Shown piece after piece: positions 5,671 to 43,033 of a DNA stretch of 44,334 bases. The notes under the pieces were generated by a model that did not search any database, was not told where the DNA came from, and saw only the letters and a program-made list of their open reading frames with translations. The position numbers and the translations under genes are program-made. The stretch comes from Candidatus Nomurabacteria bacterium RIFCSPLOWO2_12_FULL_44_11. GTDB taxonomy: Bacteria; Patescibacteriota; Minisyncoccia; Phycocordibacterales; UBA9973. Location: contig MFVU01000002.1 of the NCBI GenBank assembly GCA_001787125.1, positions 1 through 44,334 on the forward strand, given 5' to 3'. Positions within the stretch are counted from its first letter, which is position 1. Every line of letters starts with the position of its first letter.

Positions 5671-8658
5671 TTATTTTCCGCCCGAGGCGGATCCGCCTTT
5701 GGCGGACATTGAATCGGAAAACTTATGATAAATTTTATACAGTTTTTTGACATTCGTATCTACAATCTTGTTCTGACCCGAGGTGATTGTTACTTTACCG
5801 TCTTTTGAAACCGTGCCAAGTTTTGTGCAAATCACCCCCCGCATTAATTTTTCAATTTTCTTTGAGTTTTTTGGGCTGACTGATACTAGAATTCTGCCTT
5901 GGGACTCCGAGAACAGCTTGGCATCGATGTTTAAGTTGCCCTCAAAATTAATTTTTGCTCCCAACATGCCGCCGAGAGAGGCCTTGGCAAGCGCGATAGC
6001 AAACCCGCCGGAATTGACTGAAAGAGATGACTCCAAAAGATTTTTCTCAATAGCATTCTCAAGTGCCTGATATGTCGTTAAATTTTTCTTGAGATCAACC
6101 TGTGGAACATTATTACCGAGCGAACCCAACATTTTGGAATACTCTGAAGCGCCTAATTCATCTTTTGTTTCACCTAGTAGGTAAATCAAGTCCCCGGCAT
6201 TTTTAAATTCAGGCGATATGGTTTTTTGCAAATTCGGCATCACTCCGATAGCCGAGATCAAGAGCGTCGGCGGAATGGAGATTTTAACCGGGTTTCCCTT
6301 TTCCCCGTAGCCCTGAAAGTCATTGAACATACTGTCCTTGCCGGAGATAAAGGGTGTGCCATAGGCCGTGGCGATGTCATAGCATGCCTTGAGGGCATCC
6401 ACGAGCTCTGCCAGGAGTTTTTTATTATAAGAAGAGCACCAGCAGAAGTTATCCAAAATTGCCAAATGGGAGAGTTTTGCTCCGGCTGAAACCGCATTGC
6501 GAACGGCTGTATCCAGTGCTCCTGCGGCCATGGCGTATGTATTTATATCCGAGTAAGAGGGGTAAAGTGCCGAAGAGAGCACCACGGCTCGAGAAGAGGC
6601 CAGGACGGGTTTGAAGACCTGGGCGTCGGTATTGATACGGCCCGGCCCGGATAGGGGTTTCAGGACAGAGGATGCCTGCACTTCATGGTCATATTGGTCG
6701 GAGATAAAGGAAAATCCAGCTATGTTATTTTTGGAAAGCAATTGCTCGAGAATTTTGGTGCGCGAACTTCCTTTGGGCATTTTAGGATTAGGGTGAGTGT
6801 GGCGATACGGCGCAGTGAATAATCGCTTCTTCGGAAAACCGTTATGCAGAAATTCCAAATCCATATCCATAAGGATCCGACCATTGTAGGAGACCGCGCA
6901 TTTTCCTGAATCGGTAAATTCTCCGATGACTGTCGCCTCCACGCCGCGACGTTTCATAAGATTATTGAAAACTTCCCATTTTTTTTGCGGCACCGCGAGA
7001 GTCATGCGTTCTTGCGACTCTGAAATCCAAATTTCCCATGGCCGAAGCCCGGGATATTTGAGTGGAACTTTTTCCAAGTCCACTTTGGCCCCACTACATT
7101 CCTTGGCCATTTCGGAGACGGAACAGGAAATGCCGCCGGCACCGTTGTCCGTAATGCTGTTATATAAATTCATCGCTCGGGCTTCCTTAACGATTGCATC
7201 GCTGAATTTTTTCTGGGTTATCGGGTCGCCGATTTGTACGGCTGTGGCGGGCGAGACGGAATCGAGAGTCACGGAAGAAAAAGTAGCCCCATGAATGCCA
7301 TCGAGTCCCACTCGGCCCCCCACTACAACAATATAGTCGCCTGCTTGCGCTTGTTTTTCCTCGGAGTGGCGGCCATTGATGTTTCTCGGAATTAATCCGA
7401 CTGTGCCTGCGAAAACGAGTGGCTTGCCACGATAACGAGCGTCAAATTTTATAAAGCCCGAAACAGTGGGAATACCGGAACAGTTGCCTCCGGCGTTAAT
7501 GCCTTTGATAACGCCCTCCATAATTCTCTTGGGCGGAAGCATCGGCTGCGTTAGTTCCCGATCCCGAAAAAGTTTGCGCTTGTCGTCCAGTTCGCCAAAA
7601 CAAAATCCATACGTATTGGCGACCGGTTTGGCTCCTAGGCCGAAGCCGATAGTGTCGCGATTGACCCCGACGATGCCGGTAATGGCGCCGCCGAAAGGGT
7701 CGAGAGCCGAGGGACTGTTGTGTGTTTCAACCTTGTGCGTTATGAGGTATTCATCATCGAAAGCAATGCCGCCGGCGTTATCGGAGAAAACCGAGACACA
7801 AAAATCAGCGGCGCCTTTTTTCTTTCTTATTAAATTGGTCGCGCCCTTGATATAGGTCTTATATAAACTGTCTATTATTTTACCATCTCGGGTATCTTCT
7901 ATTTCGCTTGCAAAAATAGTGTGCTTGCAGTGCTCGCTCCAGGTCTGCGCCAAGGACTCCAGTTCAACATCCGTCGGGTCCCTCCCTAGTTTGGTGAAAT
8001 ATTCCTGGATCGTTTTCATGGAATCGAGATCAAGCGCTAGAGGCCCGCGGCGAAAGCCCTGGGGATCCATGATTCCTTCCTTGCCAATTTTGGTAAGTTC
8101 GGCGCTCGAGACCGAGAGTGGCACTCGAATGACCGGGCTGGTCTTGCTTAAAACCACTTCCGGGACATGCAGGGGCAGATTCGCGGTTTTTTGAAAATAT
8201 TTCTTATTGAAAGTATAGGATGTTTCAATCAGCGGATTGTGTAACGAAAAAGCTATTTTTTTTATATCTTCTGCTGATATCGTTCCGGAAATTAAAAAAA
8301 CTTTTGAAGTGTAGACGACCAAGTCCGCCTCCTCTTTTATGTGGAGCAGATCGATTATTGTTTCTTTGACGGTATGTGCTACATTGTCCGTTACTCCGGG
8401 CTTAAATCCGATTTCCAATGCGAAATCGCAGTTAGTTTTTGATAATTTGTCTATTGAATACCCTTCCAAGATAGGATTAGTAAGCGCGCTTGCAACCCTG
8501 AGAAGATCCGCCTTGGCCAGTGAATGCTCGATGAGGTAGGAGTCAATAATTGTGATTCGAGAGAGCTTACCCGATAGCCCCAGTTCGTTCCATGACTTTT
8601 TATAAAGCCCAACTCTCACGTCTAGTCCTTTAGGCGTTACATAAATCCTGGAAATCAT
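5671..8658 (-). CDS. purL: phosphoribosylformylglycinamidine synthase, large-type synthetase subunit with PurS-like N-terminal domain but no fused glutaminase
   Basis: AQTWSEHCKHTIF and HKVETHNSPSALDPFGGA are PurL motifs. EIGFKPGVTDNVAHTVKE resembles the N-domain of large PurL. Start set at ATG 8658 (MISRIYVTPKG); the track extension to 9093 overlaps the divergent yvcK-like gene. Confidence 0.9.
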   Translation of the reverse strand: MISRIYVTPKGLDVRVGLYKKSWNELGLSGKLSRITIIDSYLIEHSLAKADLLRVASALTNPILEGYSIDKLSKTNCDFALEIGFKPGVTDNVAHTVKETIIDLLHIKEEADLVVYTSKVFLISGTISAEDIKKIAFSLHNPLIETSYTFNKKYFQKTANLPLHVPEVVLSKTSPVIRVPLSVSSAELTKIGKEGIMDPQGFRRGPLALDLDSMKTIQEYFTKLGRDPTDVELESLAQTWSEHCKHTIFASEIEDTRDGKIIDSLYKTYIKGATNLIRKKKGAADFCVSVFSDNAGGIAFDDEYLITHKVETHNSPSALDPFGGAITGIVGVNRDTIGFGLGAKPVANTYGFCFGELDDKRKLFRDRELTQPMLPPKRIMEGVIKGINAGGNCSGIPTVSGFIKFDARYRGKPLVFAGTVGLIPRNINGRHSEEKQAQAGDYIVVVGGRVGLDGIHGATFSSVTLDSVSPATAVQIGDPITQKKFSDAIVKEARAMNLYNSITDNGAGGISCSVSEMAKECSGAKVDLEKVPLKYPGLRPWEIWISESQERMTLAVPQKKWEVFNNLMKRRGVEATVIGEFTDSGKCAVSYNGRILMDMDLEFLHNGFPKKRLFTAPYRHTHPNPKMPKGSSRTKILEQLLSKNNIAGFSFISDQYDHEVQASSVLKPLSGPGRINTDAQVFKPVLASSRAVVLSSALYPSYSDINTYAMAAGALDTAVRNAVSAGAKLSHLAILDNFCWCSSYNKKLLAELVDALKACYDIATAYGTPFISGKDSMFNDFQGYGEKGNPVKISIPPTLLISAIGVMPNLQKTISPEFKNAGDLIYLLGETKDELGASEYSKMLGSLGNNVPQVDLKKNLTTYQALENAIEKNLLESSLSVNSGGFAIALAKASLGGMLGAKINFEGNLNIDAKLFSESQGRILVSVSPKNSKKIEKLMRGVICTKLGTVSKDGKVTITSGQNKIVDTNVKKLYKIYHKFSDSMSAKGGSASGGK
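5678..5705. repeat. tandem CCGCC-n3-GGCGG mini-palindromes at the purL 3' end
   Basis: ccgcc cga ggcgg (5678-5690), then at, then ccgcc ttt ggcgg (5693-5705). The centre forms the 12-bp perfect palindrome ggcggatccgcc. Encodes the purL C-terminus SAKGGSASGGK, 8 nt upstream of the purQ ATG. Confidence 0.75.
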
Positions 8659-8670
8659 ACTGTTATGCCC

Positions 8671-8679
8671 ATTATAGCA
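8671..8679 (-). promoter_or_regulatory. extended -10 (TGcTATAAT) for the purL operon
   Basis: Minus strand reads gTGcTATAAT, then 12 nt, then the purL ATG. No SD in between. Confidence 0.5.
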
Positions 8680-8705
8680 CACCTCGGGACAAATCGCACA
8701 AATTC

Positions 8706-40820: not shown

Positions 40821-41183
40821 ATGAGTAAAACTTCGTTTCATATTTTAAGGGTTGGGCTGGCGGTAACTTTTTTATGGATCGGTATTTTAATCATCAAAGC
40901 GCCGGAGGCCTGGGGAGGATTTATTAACCCCTGGGTTCTTAAATTACTACCCCTATCGATCAAAGAAATGATGCTGGGAACCGCCGCACTAGATATCGTG
41001 ATTGGCACTCTCTTCTTGTTTGATAAATATGTTTGGCTGGGCGCTTTGGTGGCAGCTCTTCATTTGCTCACTGTCTTGGGAGTCAGTGGCATTAATGATG
41101 TAACCGTGAGGGACATAGCTATCCTTTCCGGAACCCTCGCCTTATTTTTTGACAGCCGGCCCGAGTGGCTTAGGAAACAATAA
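40821..41183 (+). CDS. small 4-TM membrane protein, DoxX-like (tentative)
   Basis: 120 aa, hydrophobic, starting 4 nt after the VKOR stop. Family assignment is weak. Confidence 0.4.
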   Translation: MSKTSFHILRVGLAVTFLWIGILIIKAPEAWGGFINPWVLKLLPLSIKEMMLGTAALDIVIGTLFLFDKYVWLGALVAALHLLTVLGVSGINDVTVRDIAILSGTLALFFDSRPEWLRKQ

Positions 41184-41844
41184 CGGTGAATTCCCCGCGT
41201 TGCTTCTCGGGATTTTTATTCAGATATTCTAAAAGTTCAGCCGCTGTGCCGGTTTTGAATTCTTCGTAAATCTTTGTGAGCTCGCGAGCAAGACATACTT
41301 TTTTAATCGGCGCAAACTTTACAAGCGATTCCAAAGTTTTTAAAATTCGATGCGGGGACTCGTAGAAGACGACAGTTCGTTTGCTTTCTTGCATTTCTTT
41401 AAATAATGTCTCTCTGCCCTTTTTGTGCGGGAGAAATCCCAAGAATATAAATTCATGAGCTGGTAGCCCCGCGCCGGAGAGCGACGCCACTACCGCAGAC
41501 GCCCCTGGGATCGGAATAATTTCTACGTTGTCCATAAACCTCGCCTTGACCTTCTGGATAAGCATTATTCCGGGATCGGAAATGCCCGGCGTGCCAGCGT
41601 CGGAGACCAGCGCCAGATTCTTCCCTTCTTTAAGTAAATCAAAAATCTTTTCAATTTTCGAGAGTTTGCTGTGCGAGTGATAACTTAGAGTGGGTTTACT
41701 AATATTGTATTTATCTAAAATTTTCTTCGTCTCCCGCGTATCTTCGCAGAGAATCATATCCACACCCTTGAGCGTCTCAATGGCGCGGAACGTAACATCC
41801 CCCAGATTTCCTATTGGCGTGGCTACAACATAGAGTTTAGACAT
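41170..41844 (-). CDS. rsmI: 16S rRNA (cytidine1402-2'-O)-methyltransferase
   Basis: LYVVATPIGNLGDVT and ILCEDTRETKK. Start set at ATG 41844; the track start at 41889 lies upstream of the predicted -10. Confidence 0.9.
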   Translation of the reverse strand: MSKLYVVATPIGNLGDVTFRAIETLKGVDMILCEDTRETKKILDKYNISKPTLSYHSHSKLSKIEKIFDLLKEGKNLALVSDAGTPGISDPGIMLIQKVKARFMDNVEIIPIPGASAVVASLSGAGLPAHEFIFLGFLPHKKGRETLFKEMQESKRTVVFYESPHRILKTLESLVKFAPIKKVCLARELTKIYEEFKTGTAAELLEYLNKNPEKQRGEFTVIVS

Positions 41845-41873: not shown

Positions 41874-41896
41874 TAAAAATTATAAACAATTAAGTT

Positions 41897-41928
41897 GGGG
41901 GTCAACGACGCGATGGCCGTTGACCCCC
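41897..41928 (-). terminator. 11-bp GC hairpin at the distal end of the GC-rich insert (possible terminator or element end)
   Basis: gggggtcaacg (41897-41907) pairs with cgttgaccccc (41918-41928) around a 10-nt loop. It lies 50 nt downstream of the island ORF stop. The minus-strand tail AACTTAATTGTTTAT is only weakly U-rich. Confidence 0.4.
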
Positions 41929-41978
41929 TTGTGCGCCAAGTTCGCTTCCCGCTTGGCACGGGATCGGCCACCTGCCGA

Positions 41979-42449
41979 TTAGGCCTGCCCGAGAGGCAGT
42001 TGCTTCTGAATCACGGGCGGCGCAATCTCGTCGGTTGGCTGCCCACCTGACGTCATGATCGTTGAATCGTCGTCCTTGGCCCGGGTTGCCCCTGACCAAT
42101 TGTTGATGGCGTCGAGGAGCTCCTCGACGCCGAGCACCTCGTGAACCCGCGCGAGCGGGTCCACGGGTTCACGCTTCAACCGCTGGCCGATGGTCGAGGT
42201 GACCATCAACCGAAACGGCGCTGCGAGCGCCTCCACGAGGACGTGTTCCACCCCCGCGGAGTGGAGTGCGCGGAGAACGTCGCCCGCCTCCTCCGTGCTG
42301 CCGTCCACGAAGACGGCAGCGAGCGCGAACTGGCCATCGAGCTCAAGTACGCTCACGGCGTGGCCGGGCCGTGCCGGAAACATAGCAACCGCCTCGTATG
42401 CGGCTGCCACCTGCTGTAGCTCGAGTGCTGCGTTTATACGGTATATCAT
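41979..42449 (-). CDS. hypothetical protein encoded in the GC-rich insert (156 aa)
   Basis: Start at ATG 42449 preceded by GAGGA (4-nt spacer). Strong G/C bias at third codon positions in this frame only. Begins MIYRINAALELQQVAAAYEAV. I recognise no family. Confidence 0.55.
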   Translation of the reverse strand: MIYRINAALELQQVAAAYEAVAMFPARPGHAVSVLELDGQFALAAVFVDGSTEEAGDVLRALHSAGVEHVLVEALAAPFRLMVTSTIGQRLKREPVDPLARVHEVLGVEELLDAINNWSGATRAKDDDSTIMTSGGQPTDEIAPPVIQKQLPLGQA

Positions 42450-42479
42450 TTGTTCCTCACAGGCCGGCTCTGCTACCGG

Positions 42480-42515
42480 CAAAACGAAACGGCTCGGGAC
42501 GCAGAACTCCCGAGC
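42480..42515 (-). terminator. intrinsic-terminator-like hairpin plus U-tract (atp operon terminator and/or leader attenuator)
   Basis: Minus strand reads GCUCGGGA-GUUCUGCG-UCCCGAGC followed by CGUUUCGUUUUG. It lies 72-107 nt downstream of the atpC stop and upstream of the island ORF. Confidence 0.5.
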
Positions 42516-42532
42516 GAACAAAACACTGTGCA

Positions 42533-42561
42533 TTTATAGCACATTTAGTATTGAAAGTCAA
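42533..42561 (-). promoter_or_regulatory. sigma70-type promoter TTGACT-17-(TGc)TATAAA pointing into the GC-rich insert
   Basis: -35 agtcaa at 42556-42561 and -10 tttata at 42533-42538 (plus-strand spelling), with a 17-nt spacer and an extended TGc. Located in the AT-rich spacer just after the atpC stop. Confidence 0.5.
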
Positions 42562-42586
42562 ATAAAAATGTGGTCTAATGTAGTTT

Positions 42587-43033
42587 TTATTTCCGATATT
42601 TCCTTTTGCGCCACTTGTCCGCAATTTTTACCCGAGTGAGGGAACGCTCCAGTTCGGCTTCAAAGTGCTCGAAGTCCACCTCATTTTTATCCGTCATTTT
42701 CTTTTTTAACTCCTCCGCTTTTTTCTTGGCCTCTTCAATCTTTTGATCTGTGAGCTCTGCAACGTGCTCCGCAAAGTCAGCCAAGACCGCAACTTCAGTA
42801 ATTCCCTCTTCATTCTTTTTTACTTCCAAAAATCCTCCGGCCACGGCCATGGGTATTTGCTCCCCGCCAGATACTGCCACCACGTCGCCGGATTTAAGTC
42901 CGACAACTAACGGAATATGATCCGACAATATTGTGATCTCCCCTTCGGTGGTCGGAAGTGACACTTGGTCCACCATTTCCTCGAGGACCAGTCGCTCTGG
43001 GGTTACGATTTTTAATTTTAATTGTTTGCTCAT
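42587..43033 (-). CDS. atpC: F0F1 ATP synthase subunit epsilon
   Basis: LKIVTPERLVLEEMVDQVSLPTTEGEITILSDHIPLV, with a C-terminal helical hairpin. Confidence 0.92.
   Translation of the reverse strand: MSKQLKLKIVTPERLVLEEMVDQVSLPTTEGEITILSDHIPLVVGLKSGDVVAVSGGEQIPMAVAGGFLEVKKNEEGITEVAVLADFAEHVAELTDQKIEEAKKKAEELKKKMTDKNEVDFEHFEAELERSLTRVKIADKWRKRKYRK

Follow-up and report, generated by a model that had tools for sequence, protein, structure and literature searches.

A GC-rich one-gene island with a strongly folded predicted transcript at the atpC-rsmI junction of a Candidatus Nomurabacteria species

How does a short block of GC-rich DNA carrying a single gene, here termed ORF X, come to lie between atpC and rsmI in Candidatus Nomurabacteria, and what accounts for its composition? 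The organism is a tiny groundwater bacterium, and the locus was analyzed within a stretch of 44,334 nucleotides of contig MFVU01000002.1 (GenBank assembly GCA_001787125.1), hereafter the window. A preliminary description, made from the sequence alone, read the block as the recent acquisition of a self-contained single-gene cassette, possibly from a high-GC host or neighbor organism, with an assembly chimera as the alternative. Our analyses lead us to favor, by a modest degree of confidence, a different account in which the block is an autonomous one-gene accessory cassette that is exchanged within the phylum and owes its GC richness to selection for a folded mRNA. According to this account, the unit would comprise a promoter, a structured leader with an SD sequence, the 156-aa ORF, and a 3′ hairpin, all lying between atpC and rsmI in a single Candidatus Nomurabacteria species.

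The island and its predicted transcription unit

The preliminary description had claimed a jump in G+C with sharp edges, and both aspects are borne out. The island (41895-42530) contains 63.8% G+C compared with a mean of 43.6% for the whole window, and 600-nt windows outside it contain 43.3% ± 3.9 G+C with a maximum of 54.8%. In 20-nt windows, the G+C fraction rises from 0.10-0.30 to 0.55-0.65 at 41891-41901 on the left and drops from 0.6-0.7 to 0.25 between 42501 and 42531 on the right. The tetranucleotide distance of the island (0.77) tops that of all other 636-nt windows (background 0.37 ± 0.04, maximum 0.52), marking it as an outlier by this measure as well. The codons of ORF X had been described as GC3 biased. 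The GC3 value of 0.76 agrees with this, but GC1 is 0.74 (GC2 0.43), and the bias is therefore one of positions 1 and 3, not of position 3 alone. The corresponding values for 40 window genes are 0.50 ± 0.05 for GC1 and 0.44 ± 0.06 for GC3, which places ORF X at a z of ~5 for each.

The neighbors of the island are housekeeping genes, namely the atp operon (atpAGDC), rsmI, VKOR, mreB, and holB, and the genes within ~3 kb on either side include no recombinase or integron integrase. These findings accord with the earlier remark that no integrase, transposase, or obvious direct repeat flanks the block, direct repeats being present at chance level only. Indeed, a flanking 12-nt direct repeat (41927-41938 and 42602-42613, one mismatch) was rejected as an att site or target duplication because ~0.8 such repeats are expected by chance and repeats of equal quality are scattered inside. 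The features of the locus are collected in Table 1.

Table 1. Coordinates of features at the atpC-rsmI junction (positions in the window)
Feature	Position	Strand	Remarks
atpC (ATP synthase epsilon)	42587-43033	-	Upstream flank; Pfam PF02823 + PF00401
Promoter-like site	42533-42561	-	-35 TTGACT (42556-42561), 17-nt spacer, extended -10 TGCTATAAA (42533-42541); sequence reading
Whole predicted transcript	41895-42526	-	Hyper-structured RNA (predicted)
GC-rich 5′ leader	42450-42526	-	Hairpin 1, hairpin 2, SD
Leader hairpin 1	42492-42515	-	Predicted fold
Leader hairpin 2	42463-42480	-	Loop UAGCAGAG; predicted fold
SD GAGGAA	42453-42458	-	Sequence; within 5′ leader of ORF X
ORF X	41979-42449	-	156 aa; OGJ02448.1; GenBank annotates 184 aa from an ATG overlapping the -10 box
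Polymorphic block 1	42135-42487	-	Leader end + codons 1-106; alleles A/B differ at ~17% of sites
Palindrome GGCGTCGAGGAGCTCCTCGACGCC	42108-42131		Perfect, 24 nt; encodes GVEELLDA; between blocks 1 and 2
Polymorphic block 2	42012-42093	-	Codons 119-146 (disordered tail); 13 differences over 82 nt between its two haplotypes
3′ hairpin	41897-41928	-	11-bp GC-rich stem, 13 bp in fold; at exact end of GC-rich block
rsmI (16S rRNA 2′-O-methyltransferase, TP_methylase)	41170-41844	-	Downstream flank; Pfam PF00590

The promoter and the hairpin of the preliminary description are both found in the sequence. The candidate promoter is similar in style to those of other window genes, with TGCTATAAT and TGCTATATT located upstream of 40406 and rsmI, respectively; TGCTATATT follows the 3′ hairpin and provides rsmI with a -10-like box of its own. 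A consensus scanner calls neither the promoter nor the terminator of the ORF X unit. It rejects the former solely because the last base of the -10 box is A, while the sequence 3′ of the hairpin, AACUUAAUUGUUUAUAAUUUUU, is U-rich without an immediate U-run and therefore yields no call. The same scanner gave no antisense promoter or terminator signal that stands out at ORF X. The 3′ hairpin is identical across all alleles and, judging from its sequence, is probably a terminator or a 3′ stabilizer.

The leader shows a fold z of -2.8 and contains an SD sequence of a strength that few native genes share, as had been noted; only 3 of 40 have a 4-nt SD core or better. Similar signals precede the one distant homologue of ORF X (see next section), which resides on contig L084 behind TTGACT-17-TGTTAAAAA. 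The leader 12-mer GGTAGCAGAGCC is identical in L084 despite the 35% identity of the proteins, and the hairpin-2 stem differs between the two by one compensatory pair, from GCCGG/CCGGC to GCTGG/CCAGC. By sequence reading, loop 1 (UCUGC) is complementary to loop 2 (GCAGA) in both the window and L084. The leader motif was present in 0 of 80 GTDB relatives, and a scan of JGI metagenomes returned 27 loci of which only one, from the same organism (L109), is real, the others being coding matches in GC-rich genomes. Rfam 15 gave no match at the gathering threshold, the best match by E-value reaching 22 bits where the gathering score is 46.

The atpC-rsmI slot and the question of a donor

Comparison of the junction in 80 GTDB relatives places the island in context. 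Same-strand atpC followed by rsmI is found in 62 of the 80, and the spacers between these genes range from 0 to 2227 nt (≤36 nt in 34 of the 80). None of the 80 genomes carries ORF X at the junction, which is either empty or occupied by other cargo: a DUF417-like membrane protein, a PEBP, a rhodanese (UPF0176 family), a sigma-54 activator, an Mrr-like nuclease, and a candidate toxin-antitoxin pair. None of these families is related to ORF X, most are also unrelated to one another, and hhalign detected no relationship between ORF X and the other GC-rich cargo proteins. As judged by these genome comparisons, the atpC-rsmI junction is a variable slot, empty (0-30 nt) or filled with unrelated cargo, and is thereby identified as a cargo slot across the clade. 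Because most relatives are without it, the ORF X unit can be considered accessory and horizontally acquired at some point, and in this respect the self-contained, horizontally acquired unit of the preliminary description is genuine. Its probable route of entry is uptake of DNA followed by homologous recombination, for which the conserved flanks would supply the homology.

Homologues were sought by a word-indexed search of a 5.8-billion-cluster set with the ORF X single sequence and profile, and by full HMMER against 1.84 billion representatives. The sole distant homologue among ~15 billion proteins is P0003 (35% identity, E 5e-5), which lacks β1/α1 of the predicted ORF X fold and is encoded on another patescibacterial contig (L084, from GCA_021733325.1); there, too, the gene immediately follows atpC and is preceded by a similar leader. 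No homologue outside the Patescibacteria was detected among ~15 billion proteins, GTDB genomes, IMG/VR, plasmids, and phages, and none was found in 185,579 GTDB species genomes. JGI metagenomes, GTDB genomes, and IMG/VR yielded nothing beyond the ORF X cluster itself and P0003; tblastn against plasmids and phages gave no match, nor did Pfam, NCBIfam, PADLOC, PHROG, or PDB sequence profiles. The protein that had seemed unrecognizable proved to be so by sequence and profile searches. In all of these collections the ORF X family appears tiny and confined to Patescibacteria, and the cassette may circulate among them, a suggestion that draws on few data points and one distant homologue.

Could the island instead record a recent, one-off transfer from a high-GC donor (a host or neighbor) that uses SD sequences and does not belong to the Patescibacteria, its G+C content and SD being unameliorated signatures of that donor? 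The deviations in G+C, GC1, and GC3 of ~5 SD over host genes, the outlying tetranucleotide distance, the scarcity of SD sequences in the host, and the absence of ORF X from 80 related species would all be expected from such an event. However, the searches described above revealed no homologue beyond the Patescibacteria, the only relative is patescibacterial and occupies the same slot, and the ORF X promoter is host-style. Moreover, the two alleles of ORF X, A and B (see next section), are old, with a dS of 0.55, yet GC3 is 0.78 in both, and their AT-to-GC and GC-to-AT differences are symmetric (21 versus 20). A second GC-rich cargo family at the slot (L050) bears on the same point: it is found in Patescibacteria only, is absent from IMG/VR, and has 57-62% G+C in hosts of 36-50% G+C, being GC-rich in every host. 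We consider this form of transfer unlikely, and a high-GC non-CPR donor is probably not the source of the cassette. Accordingly, three elements of the preliminary description are not supported: the acquisition as recent, given the allele divergence and the homologue in the same slot of a different patescibacterium; the high-GC host or neighbor as donor; and G+C as a donor fingerprint. As an independent matter, a GC-richer patescibacterial donor pool could also explain the composition of the island.

Coding sequence, predicted transcript folding, and two old alleles

The 156-aa frame singled out in the preliminary description is indeed a gene, as comparison of its alleles shows. Alleles A and B differ at codon positions 1, 2, and 3 in a ratio of 11:9:34, with one in-frame codon indel and a dN/dS of 0.18; the SD is kept in both, and the ORF is intact in all alleles. 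Because of the dN/dS value, the distribution by codon position, the in-frame indel, and the retained SD, ORF X can be taken as coding, with a product under purifying selection. The protein is acidic and rich in Ala, Leu, and Val, as described before (pI 4.7; Ala/Leu/Val 36%), has a GRAVY of 0.13, and contains neither a TM-like segment nor tandem or internal repeats. An AF2 model (pLDDT 63) consists of a β-α-β-β-α-β N-domain, a conserved helix, and a disordered tail. Foldseek searches of PDB and BFVD with two AF2 models (pLDDT 57-63) returned generic ferredoxin-like folds only (best E 3.6e-3), and the top matches to this low-confidence model were PII proteins, S6, and ACT domains at a query-normalized TM of ~0.35. 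A resemblance of the sequence "...LLDAINNWSGATRAKDDDSTIM" to the C terminus of PP2C/SpoIIE phosphatases was considered and dropped, as there was no Pfam or PDB profile match even at E 10. Defense, anti-defense, and toxin-antitoxin models (PADLOC, PHROG, Pfam, NCBIfam) did not match ORF X, which is a single gene without an adjacent partner gene. The product would be a small, acidic, cytoplasmic α/β protein with a disordered tail that probably acts by binding a partner, in the manner of an immunity protein, antitoxin, or regulator. That it is a conflict or immunity-type binder is a guess.

The mRNA of ORF X is predicted to be folded to an extreme degree. ViennaRNA predictions at 37 °C give the transcript an MFE of -333 kcal/mol compared with -272 ± 5 for dinucleotide shuffles (z -12). 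Measured against synonymous-codon shuffles, ORF X alone has a z of -5.8 (allele A) or -5.2 to -6.4 (allele B), while the 40 window genes average -0.18 ± 1.26, nine slot cargo genes of host-like composition range from -2.3 to +2.4, and seven ordinary genes of 61-69% GC from -3.4 to +1.6; some control genes lie at -3.4 to -4.7. The predicted sense RNA, with 16-20 G-U pairs, is more stable than the antisense. The consensus fold leaves the SD and start region open, and the 5′ end pairs with the 3′ UTR in the predicted fold. Comparison of the alleles shows that 54% of changed pairs still pair, versus 40 ± 6% expected (P 0.011), which is of moderate significance when the strict null is applied; refolding gives an energy of -243.7 versus -221.7 ± 6.8, and a threaded-energy test gave P 0.06. 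Together, these predictions indicate a transcript folded far beyond the needs of its protein sequence and codon usage, with folding kept between alleles. In our preferred account, the G+C content and strong SD would largely result from selection that favors a stable, folded mRNA whose ribosome-binding window stays open. This hyper-folding, the most unusual feature of the locus, was absent from the preliminary description and offers a different cause for the G+C and the SD.

A similar syndrome, GC-rich and SD-led with no known family and a negative z, was seen in other Patescibacteria, including genes unrelated to ORF X: it was found for L050_146 (-5.1), L063_210 (-3.6), and P0003 (-3.0), and is shared by four adjacent orphan genes on L132 (-3.2 to -5.5). 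It is not universal, since the GC-rich cargo gene L063_170 shows no excess structure. A search of the literature for hyper-folded GC-rich accessory genes in CPR found none.

Strong folding could also mean that the region is primarily a structured noncoding or dual-function RNA in which the ORF is incidental or secondary. The transcript z of -12, the better folding of the sense strand, the conserved leader motif, and the coincidence of the G+C block with the predicted transcript all fit such an RNA. In contrast, the placement of 34 of 54 substitutions at third codon positions (chi-square against an even split ~21, calculated by hand), the low dN/dS, the in-frame indel, and the ORF intact in all alleles are properties of a protein-coding gene, as are the SD with its open start window and the match to P0003 at the protein level; no Rfam family covers the region. 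On this basis a purely noncoding reading is very unlikely, whereas a dual-function RNA is conceivable, if unlikely.

In otherwise uniform genomes, the variation is almost entirely confined to the ORF X gene. All differences in the B contigs (62 of 62) are inside the ORF X gene. Contig L114 differs from the window at 15 positions over 5.36 kb, 13 of them within block 2, for which dN/dS is 0.27, and L129 carries the B-type leader change at 42487 in a contig otherwise equal to the window over 1.9 kb upstream. That near-identical strains differ almost only in the two ORF X blocks points to recombination between old alleles, and these contig comparisons indeed show alleles of dS ~0.55 recombining into what appear to be otherwise clonal genomes. 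The palindrome between the blocks is the only perfect one of at least 16 nt in the window and is invariant in all alleles; a variant seen in a single contig (L113) diverges at its center. Alleles A and B co-occur in the same samples, as adjacent contigs resembling an assembly-graph bubble. Within the species, ORF X does not vary by presence or absence; it is fixed and occurs as two alleles, and conflict in which the product acts may keep the two alleles by balancing selection.

Mosaic blocks in clonal backgrounds and G+C that is high across old alleles might suggest a native or long-resident gene located at a recombination hotspot and enriched in G+C by GC-biased gene conversion, with RNA structure as a by-product. 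However, this would leave unexplained the excess folding over same-composition shuffles, the structure-preserving substitutions, and the SD. The A/B differences are also balanced between AT-to-GC and GC-to-AT, and a second mosaic patch, on L123, lies in rsmI (41484-41596), a gene of ordinary composition. We judge this explanation improbable. Targeted hypermutation by a diversity-generating retroelement (DGR), an element common in CPR, as the source of both hypervariable blocks is more improbable by far: although variation is sharply localized in otherwise identical genomes and 10 of the 13 tail differences involve adenine in one allele, blastn (word size 7) found no template-repeat-like copy of the island in the 44-kb window, no reverse transcriptase is present among the neighboring genes, most changes in block 1 are synonymous and located at third positions, and discrete haplotypes (A/B, tail 1/2) take the place of a variant cloud. 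Finally, an assembly chimera, in which GC-rich DNA of another organism was joined into a Nomurabacteria contig, is refuted for the whole island: several contigs end inside the ORF X gene, the N run of NCBI scaffold MFUN01000036 falls exactly at block 2, and L113 runs on into unrelated GC-rich sequence, but these breaks fall at the polymorphic blocks, where strain bubbles would be expected to produce them. Different pipelines recovered the island and both junctions, with identical flanks, independently of one another; the contigs come from at least 10 samples and three sources and represent more than ten independent assemblies, including 0.7-0.95-kb contigs that span atpC, island, and rsmI and others of 18-52 kb.

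Meaning and comparison with known systems

That no high-GC donor was found for a GC-rich island is a caution against taking such islands at face value as foreign DNA, and composition-based calls of horizontal transfer in Patescibacteria may mislead, given that the ORF X family and its counterpart at the slot are known only from the phylum and stay GC-rich in hosts of any composition. ORF X is also a testable case of strong simultaneous selection on protein and mRNA structure, in a group for which gene expression and RNA turnover have hardly been studied. Old alleles that recombine into clonal backgrounds are the population signature of conflict genes, which makes the locus a candidate marker for phage or host interaction in uncultured groundwater Nomurabacteria. 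It is conceivable, if doubtful, that Patescibacteria carry a class of "armoured"-mRNA accessory genes that are GC-rich irrespective of host composition, SD-led in hosts where SD use is rare, family-less, and selected for extreme folding around an open start. If so, ORF X would be a bi-allelic, single-gene example, and G+C islands would often mark selection at the RNA level, not foreign origin. Messages of this kind could outlast the ordinary AU-rich, unstructured mRNAs of the host, or still be translated when those are not, for example, where RNases serve in conflict (toxins, abortive infection, nucleases of host or phage) or during dormancy; the RNA itself could also be functional.

Several known systems resemble parts of this locus. 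The β-α-β-β-α-β topology predicted with low confidence for residues 1-75 of ORF X resembles that of PII/GlnB, ACT domains, and ribosomal protein S6; there is no similarity at the sequence level. As in DGR targets, the variability of ORF X is sharply localized, and in a phylum where DGRs are common; however, DGR variation is limited to template adenines and is mostly nonsynonymous, whereas the ORF X substitutions are rich in synonymous changes. Integron cassettes likewise consist of a single ORF followed by a hairpin inverted repeat, and the ORF X hairpin contains GTCAAC...GTTGAC, which resembles an attC core. As an attC site the hairpin was rejected: it spans 32 nt compared with at least 57 nt (57-141 nt, R′′/L′′/L′/R′), and its GGTCAAC and GTTGACC are each one base off RYYYAAC/GTTRRRY. 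Unlike integron cassettes, moreover, ORF X has its own promoter-like site and no integron integrase nearby.

Phage morons, known from lambdoid phages, lie between other genes as independent units of promoter, gene, and terminator with a deviant composition. ORF X similarly stands alone between promoter-like and terminator-like signals and has a composition unlike that of its neighbors, but it is not accompanied by a prophage and has no PHROG, IMG/VR, or phage match. Highly folded coding RNAs include ssRNA phage genomes, hok-type type I toxin mRNAs with 5′-3′ fold-back, and cspA-type mRNAs, and the ORF X coding sequence also seems constrained by extensive predicted base pairing, in a fold that likewise joins the 5′ end to the 3′ UTR and leaves the ribosome-binding window open. 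ORF X differs in being encoded in chromosomal DNA, with no antisense RNA or replicase evident, and where hok-like type I toxins are small hydrophobic peptides with a cis-antisense RNA, its product is acidic, soluble, and 156 aa in length. Finally, chromosomal hotspots that lack an integrase and serve as variable slots for horizontally acquired genes between core genes are an established concept of comparative genomics. The atpC-rsmI junction shares with them its conserved flanks, unrelated or missing cargo, lack of a recombinase, and plausible exchange by flank homology, but differs in that the cargo here is one orphan gene that is fixed, bi-allelic, and extreme in both composition and predicted mRNA folding.

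The GC-rich island and its slot

Sliding-window analysis bore out the sharp-edged GC-rich island that the preliminary description placed between atpC and rsmI. The island has a G+C content of 63.8%, compared with 43.6% for the window, and the highest value in any other 600-nt window is 54.8%. In 20-nt windows, G+C rises from ≤0.3 to ≥0.55 at 41891-41901 and drops back between 42501 and 42531, and the proposed tetranucleotide analysis likewise identifies the island as the strongest usage outlier in the window. The Shine-Dalgarno (SD)-preceded ORF described there (ORF X; its alleles are termed A, carried by the window, and B) is present, as are the house-style promoter motif and the hairpin at the far end (see table). 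The claimed third-position bias also holds, with a GC3 of 0.76 against 0.44 ± 0.06 for the window's 40 genes, and GC1 is raised as well (0.74 against 0.50 ± 0.05; GC2 is 0.43). As described, the encoded protein is acidic, with a pI of 4.7, and Ala, Leu, and Val are abundant in it; in GenBank it is OGJ02448.1, listed as a hypothetical protein from a Candidatus Nomurabacteria MAG. The 156-aa form is preferred over the 184-aa form of the public annotation because the start ATG of the latter overlaps the −10 box. Only 3 of 40 native genes across the whole window carry even a 4-nt SD core between −20 and −4, and the organism apparently starts translation mostly without an SD. Window genes are repeatedly preceded by extended −10 boxes of the type TGCTATAAT/TGCTATATT.

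Features of the island and of related GC-rich loci
Feature	Location	Strand	Remark
GC-rich island	41895-42530		
ORF X	41979-42449	-	156 aa
Predicted transcript	42526->41895		
Putative promoter TTGACT-17-TGCTATAAA	upstream of ORF X	-	sequence reading
SD GAGGAA	upstream of ORF X start	-	sequence reading
Complementary leader loops UCUGC and GCAGA	42463-42515; L084:705-760		stems differ
Perfect 24-nt palindrome GGCGTCGAGGAGCTCCTCGACGCC	42108-42131		inside ORF X, between two polymorphic blocks
GC hairpin, 11-13 bp, candidate terminator	41897-41928	-	closes GC-rich block
rsmI mosaic patch	41484-41596		26 differing positions within 113 nt relative to L123
N run	L123:3462-3547 (= window 41997-42084)		exactly over polymorphic tail of ORF X
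Second GC-rich ORF (MSGNGETVCGTKDEIE...), SD GGGAGGGG	L084:1108-1156		starts 22 nt past P0003 stop
146-aa ORF	L050:6639-7079		61% G+C in 36% G+C locus
210-aa ORF	L063:6537-7169		58% G+C
Four SD-led GC-rich genes	L132:5001-7668		52-62% vs about 40% G+C
Post-rsmI GC-rich blocks	L034:7200-7700; L062:7550-7900; L011:7950-8350		55-61% vs about 38% G+C

Comparison of the spacer among relatives, which the preliminary description had proposed, shows that the atpC–rsmI junction serves as a cargo slot throughout Nomurabacteria-like genomes. In the slot region (about 6445-8700 in each of loci L004-L083), rsmI comes next after atpC in 62 of the 80 related species genomes; of these 62, 34 have a spacer of 0-36 nt and 27 have one of 378-2227 nt that contains unrelated genes. 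The cargo includes a DUF417-like membrane protein family, PEBP, a rhodanese (UPF0176 family), a sigma-54 activator, an ATP-cone/Mrr-like nuclease, a putative toxin-antitoxin pair (73 aa and 86 aa), and several orphans. The analysis shows ORF X to be a genuine accessory unit of one gene, housed in a variable slot. In agreement with the reported lack of mobility signs, the genes next to the island include no recombinase or mobile-element gene, and its flanking repeats are at chance level.

The preliminary description tentatively attributed the island to a high-GC donor, the best ranked of the rival explanations, and the database searches speak against it. The searches covered 5.8 billion protein clusters, 1.84 billion 50% representatives (each of them scanned by HMMER), and, in addition, GTDB species genomes, IMG/VR, JGI metagenomes, plasmids, and phages. 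Apart from its own two 90% clusters, ORF X matched a single protein in all these databases, the 105-aa P0003 (35% identity, E 5e-5), which is encoded directly downstream of atpC on a 1.16-kb contig, L084, whose AtpC is 77% identical to that of the window. There, P0003 is preceded by TTGACT-17-TGTTAAAAA, a two-hairpin leader, and a strong SD. The 12-mer GGTAGCAGAGCC, forming the stem end and loop of hairpin 2, is identical in both leaders and the stem shows one compensatory change; the motif occurs in 0 of the 80 GTDB relatives. On these matches, the ORF X family is known only from Patescibacteria.

The two leader loops are complementary in both loci, and in L084 the minimum free energy (MFE) structure pairs them directly; they may form a kissing-loop or alternative-pairing regulatory element. 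Hairpin 1 of the window is followed by a U-rich tract and was flagged as terminator-like. With its second SD-led ORF, the L084 island is multi-gene, but the contig stops at this point. ORF X and P0003 share a conserved core around 'P-x-R-L-x-x-T-S' and 'L-x-D-x-x-x-N-W-x-G-x-T-R-x-x-x-D-D'. None of the family libraries searched recognised the ORF X protein. AlphaFold models (pLDDT 57 and 63) predict a beta-alpha-beta-beta-alpha-beta N-domain, a further strand-helix, and a disordered tail; with these low-pLDDT models, Foldseek returned generic ferredoxin-like folds alone (PII, S6, and ACT; E above 1e-3).

Predicted folding of the ORF X mRNA

Thermodynamic prediction at 37 °C, on which all structure evidence is based, shows that the ORF X mRNA is folded far beyond what its coding content demands, and that this property is conserved. 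The predicted transcript folds at −333 kcal/mol, compared with −272 ± 5 for dinucleotide shuffles. ORF X alone has an MFE of −238.1; its shuffled versions average −199.6 ± 6.3 when codon order is shuffled, −199.5 ± 7.9 when shuffling is position-specific, and −200.4 ± 6.5 when synonymous codons are exchanged with protein and codon usage preserved (z −5.8). The 40 genes of the window, treated in the same way, have z −0.18 ± 1.26 (range −2.65 to +2.68); nine slot cargo genes of host-like composition give −2.3 to +2.4, and seven ordinary 61-69% G+C genes from GC-rich organisms −3.4 to +1.6, with same-length MFEs of −183 to −219; some control genes reach about −3.4 to −4.7.

Allele B is as folded as A (−243.6; z −5.2 to −6.4). 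When the A-to-B substitution types were reassigned at random to sites matching in base and codon position, the refolded sequences averaged −221.7 ± 6.8 and 0 of 100 trials reached −243.7; 54% of changed pairs still pair, compared with 40 ± 6% under this null (P 0.011). A threaded-energy test gave P 0.06, and RNAalifold found two double compensatory pairs, ~16 wobble-compatible single changes, and ~15 broken pairs. The strict allele test is significant, though not overwhelmingly so. In both alleles and in the 146-aa ORF of L050, folding is better on the sense than on the antisense strand, with 16-20 G-U pairs used, and in-frame values for the 210-aa ORF of L063 agree, which places the signal at the RNA level. 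The SD and start region of ORF X are open in the consensus fold and its first codons are unusually AT-rich.

Such folding might point to an RNA gene, the second-ranked rival; the substitution pattern shows that ORF X is protein-coding, as the preliminary description had proposed. Allele B (contigs L001-L003) differs from A at 54 aligned ORF sites, distributed 11:9:34 by codon position, plus one codon indel, with dN/dS 0.18 and dS 0.55 (Nei-Gojobori). ORF, SD, and frame are intact in all variants.

A similar combination appears in other Patescibacteria, whose SD-led genes of this kind reach 52-62% G+C against 36-45%. When the 80 relatives' loci were scanned for G+C outliers, the strongest ones lay in or beside the slot. 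Besides a host-style promoter, the L050 ORF (z −5.1) has a structured leader and an SD; its family comprises at least 117 proteins, every named one from Patescibacteria, in varied genomic contexts and at 57-62% G+C in hosts of 36-50%. A member of this family heads the L132 gene run (z −3.2 to −5.5), whose genes match no known family and whose housekeeping neighbours lack an SD. The 210-aa ORF of L063 gives z −3.6, a 170-aa membrane ORF there (58% G+C) +0.2, and the P0003 gene −3.0. The GC-rich proteins of L050, L063, and L132 show no relationship to ORF X. Three relatives also have GC-rich blocks immediately after rsmI, with no Rfam match and short SD-led ORFs alone (68-87 aa).

Alleles, recombination, and assembly

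Sequence comparison indicates that the ORF X unit carries old recombining alleles. The A/B ORF differences are confined to codons 1-106, with five more in the leader's final 36 nt, and the ORF tail occurs as two haplotypes (13 differences in 82 nt, dN/dS 0.27). All 62 positions at which B contigs differ from the window lie within 41950-42487, and 13 of the 15 differences between contig L114 and the window over 5.36 kb fall in 42012-42093. Contig L129 has the B-type leader change and otherwise matches the window exactly across 1.9 kb of atp operon sequence. Because haplotypes A1, A2, and B1 all exist, the two polymorphic blocks must recombine. The palindrome between them, the only perfect one of ≥16 nt in the 44-kb window, may be a recombination hotspot or binding site. 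In L113, a 665-bp single contig encoding the 172-aa P0014, the allele-B N-terminal part gives way at the exact centre of the palindrome to unrelated GC-rich sequence (513-665) with no match among retrieved sequences; this one short contig would represent either a structural variant or a misassembly.

The rsmI patch is the sole place outside the island where L123, the public NCBI scaffold MFUN01000036, differs from the window among aligned positions. This second mosaic patch suggests that import of diverged segments is a general habit of the population, concentrated in ORF X.

Biased gene conversion ranks third among the rivals, followed by mutagenesis by a diversity-generating retroelement (DGR), which is unlikely: a template repeat is absent in 44 kb and a reverse transcriptase absent nearby, many of the changes are synonymous, and the variants form discrete haplotypes. 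The assembly chimera raised in the preliminary description ranks last and is refuted, as both junctions with identical flanks are common to several ENA assemblies, two JGI metagenomes, and NCBI, on 0.7-0.95-kb contigs spanning atpC, island, and rsmI and on others of 18-52 kb. The exact AtpC protein occurs on 23-28 contigs, with the island on every one reaching far enough. Single samples contain both A and B, on neighbouring contigs that resemble an assembly-graph bubble, and contig breaks and the one N run lie within the polymorphic blocks, as expected for strain bubbles. The annotation of L123 has no gene at its N run.

Proposed origin and selection

We infer from the one distant homologue that the cassette moves among Patescibacteria by homologous recombination of conserved flanks, a reading favoured over arrival from a high-GC outsider. 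The G+C and SD of the island would then be largely a consequence of selection for a stable folded mRNA, which would still need an accessible SD-driven start in a host rarely using SDs otherwise. ORF X has no partner gene and no known domain; our guess is that its product, a small acidic protein with a predicted alpha/beta fold and disordered tail, works through binding to a partner. The bi-allelic recombining state would reflect balancing selection of the kind typical of conflict genes.
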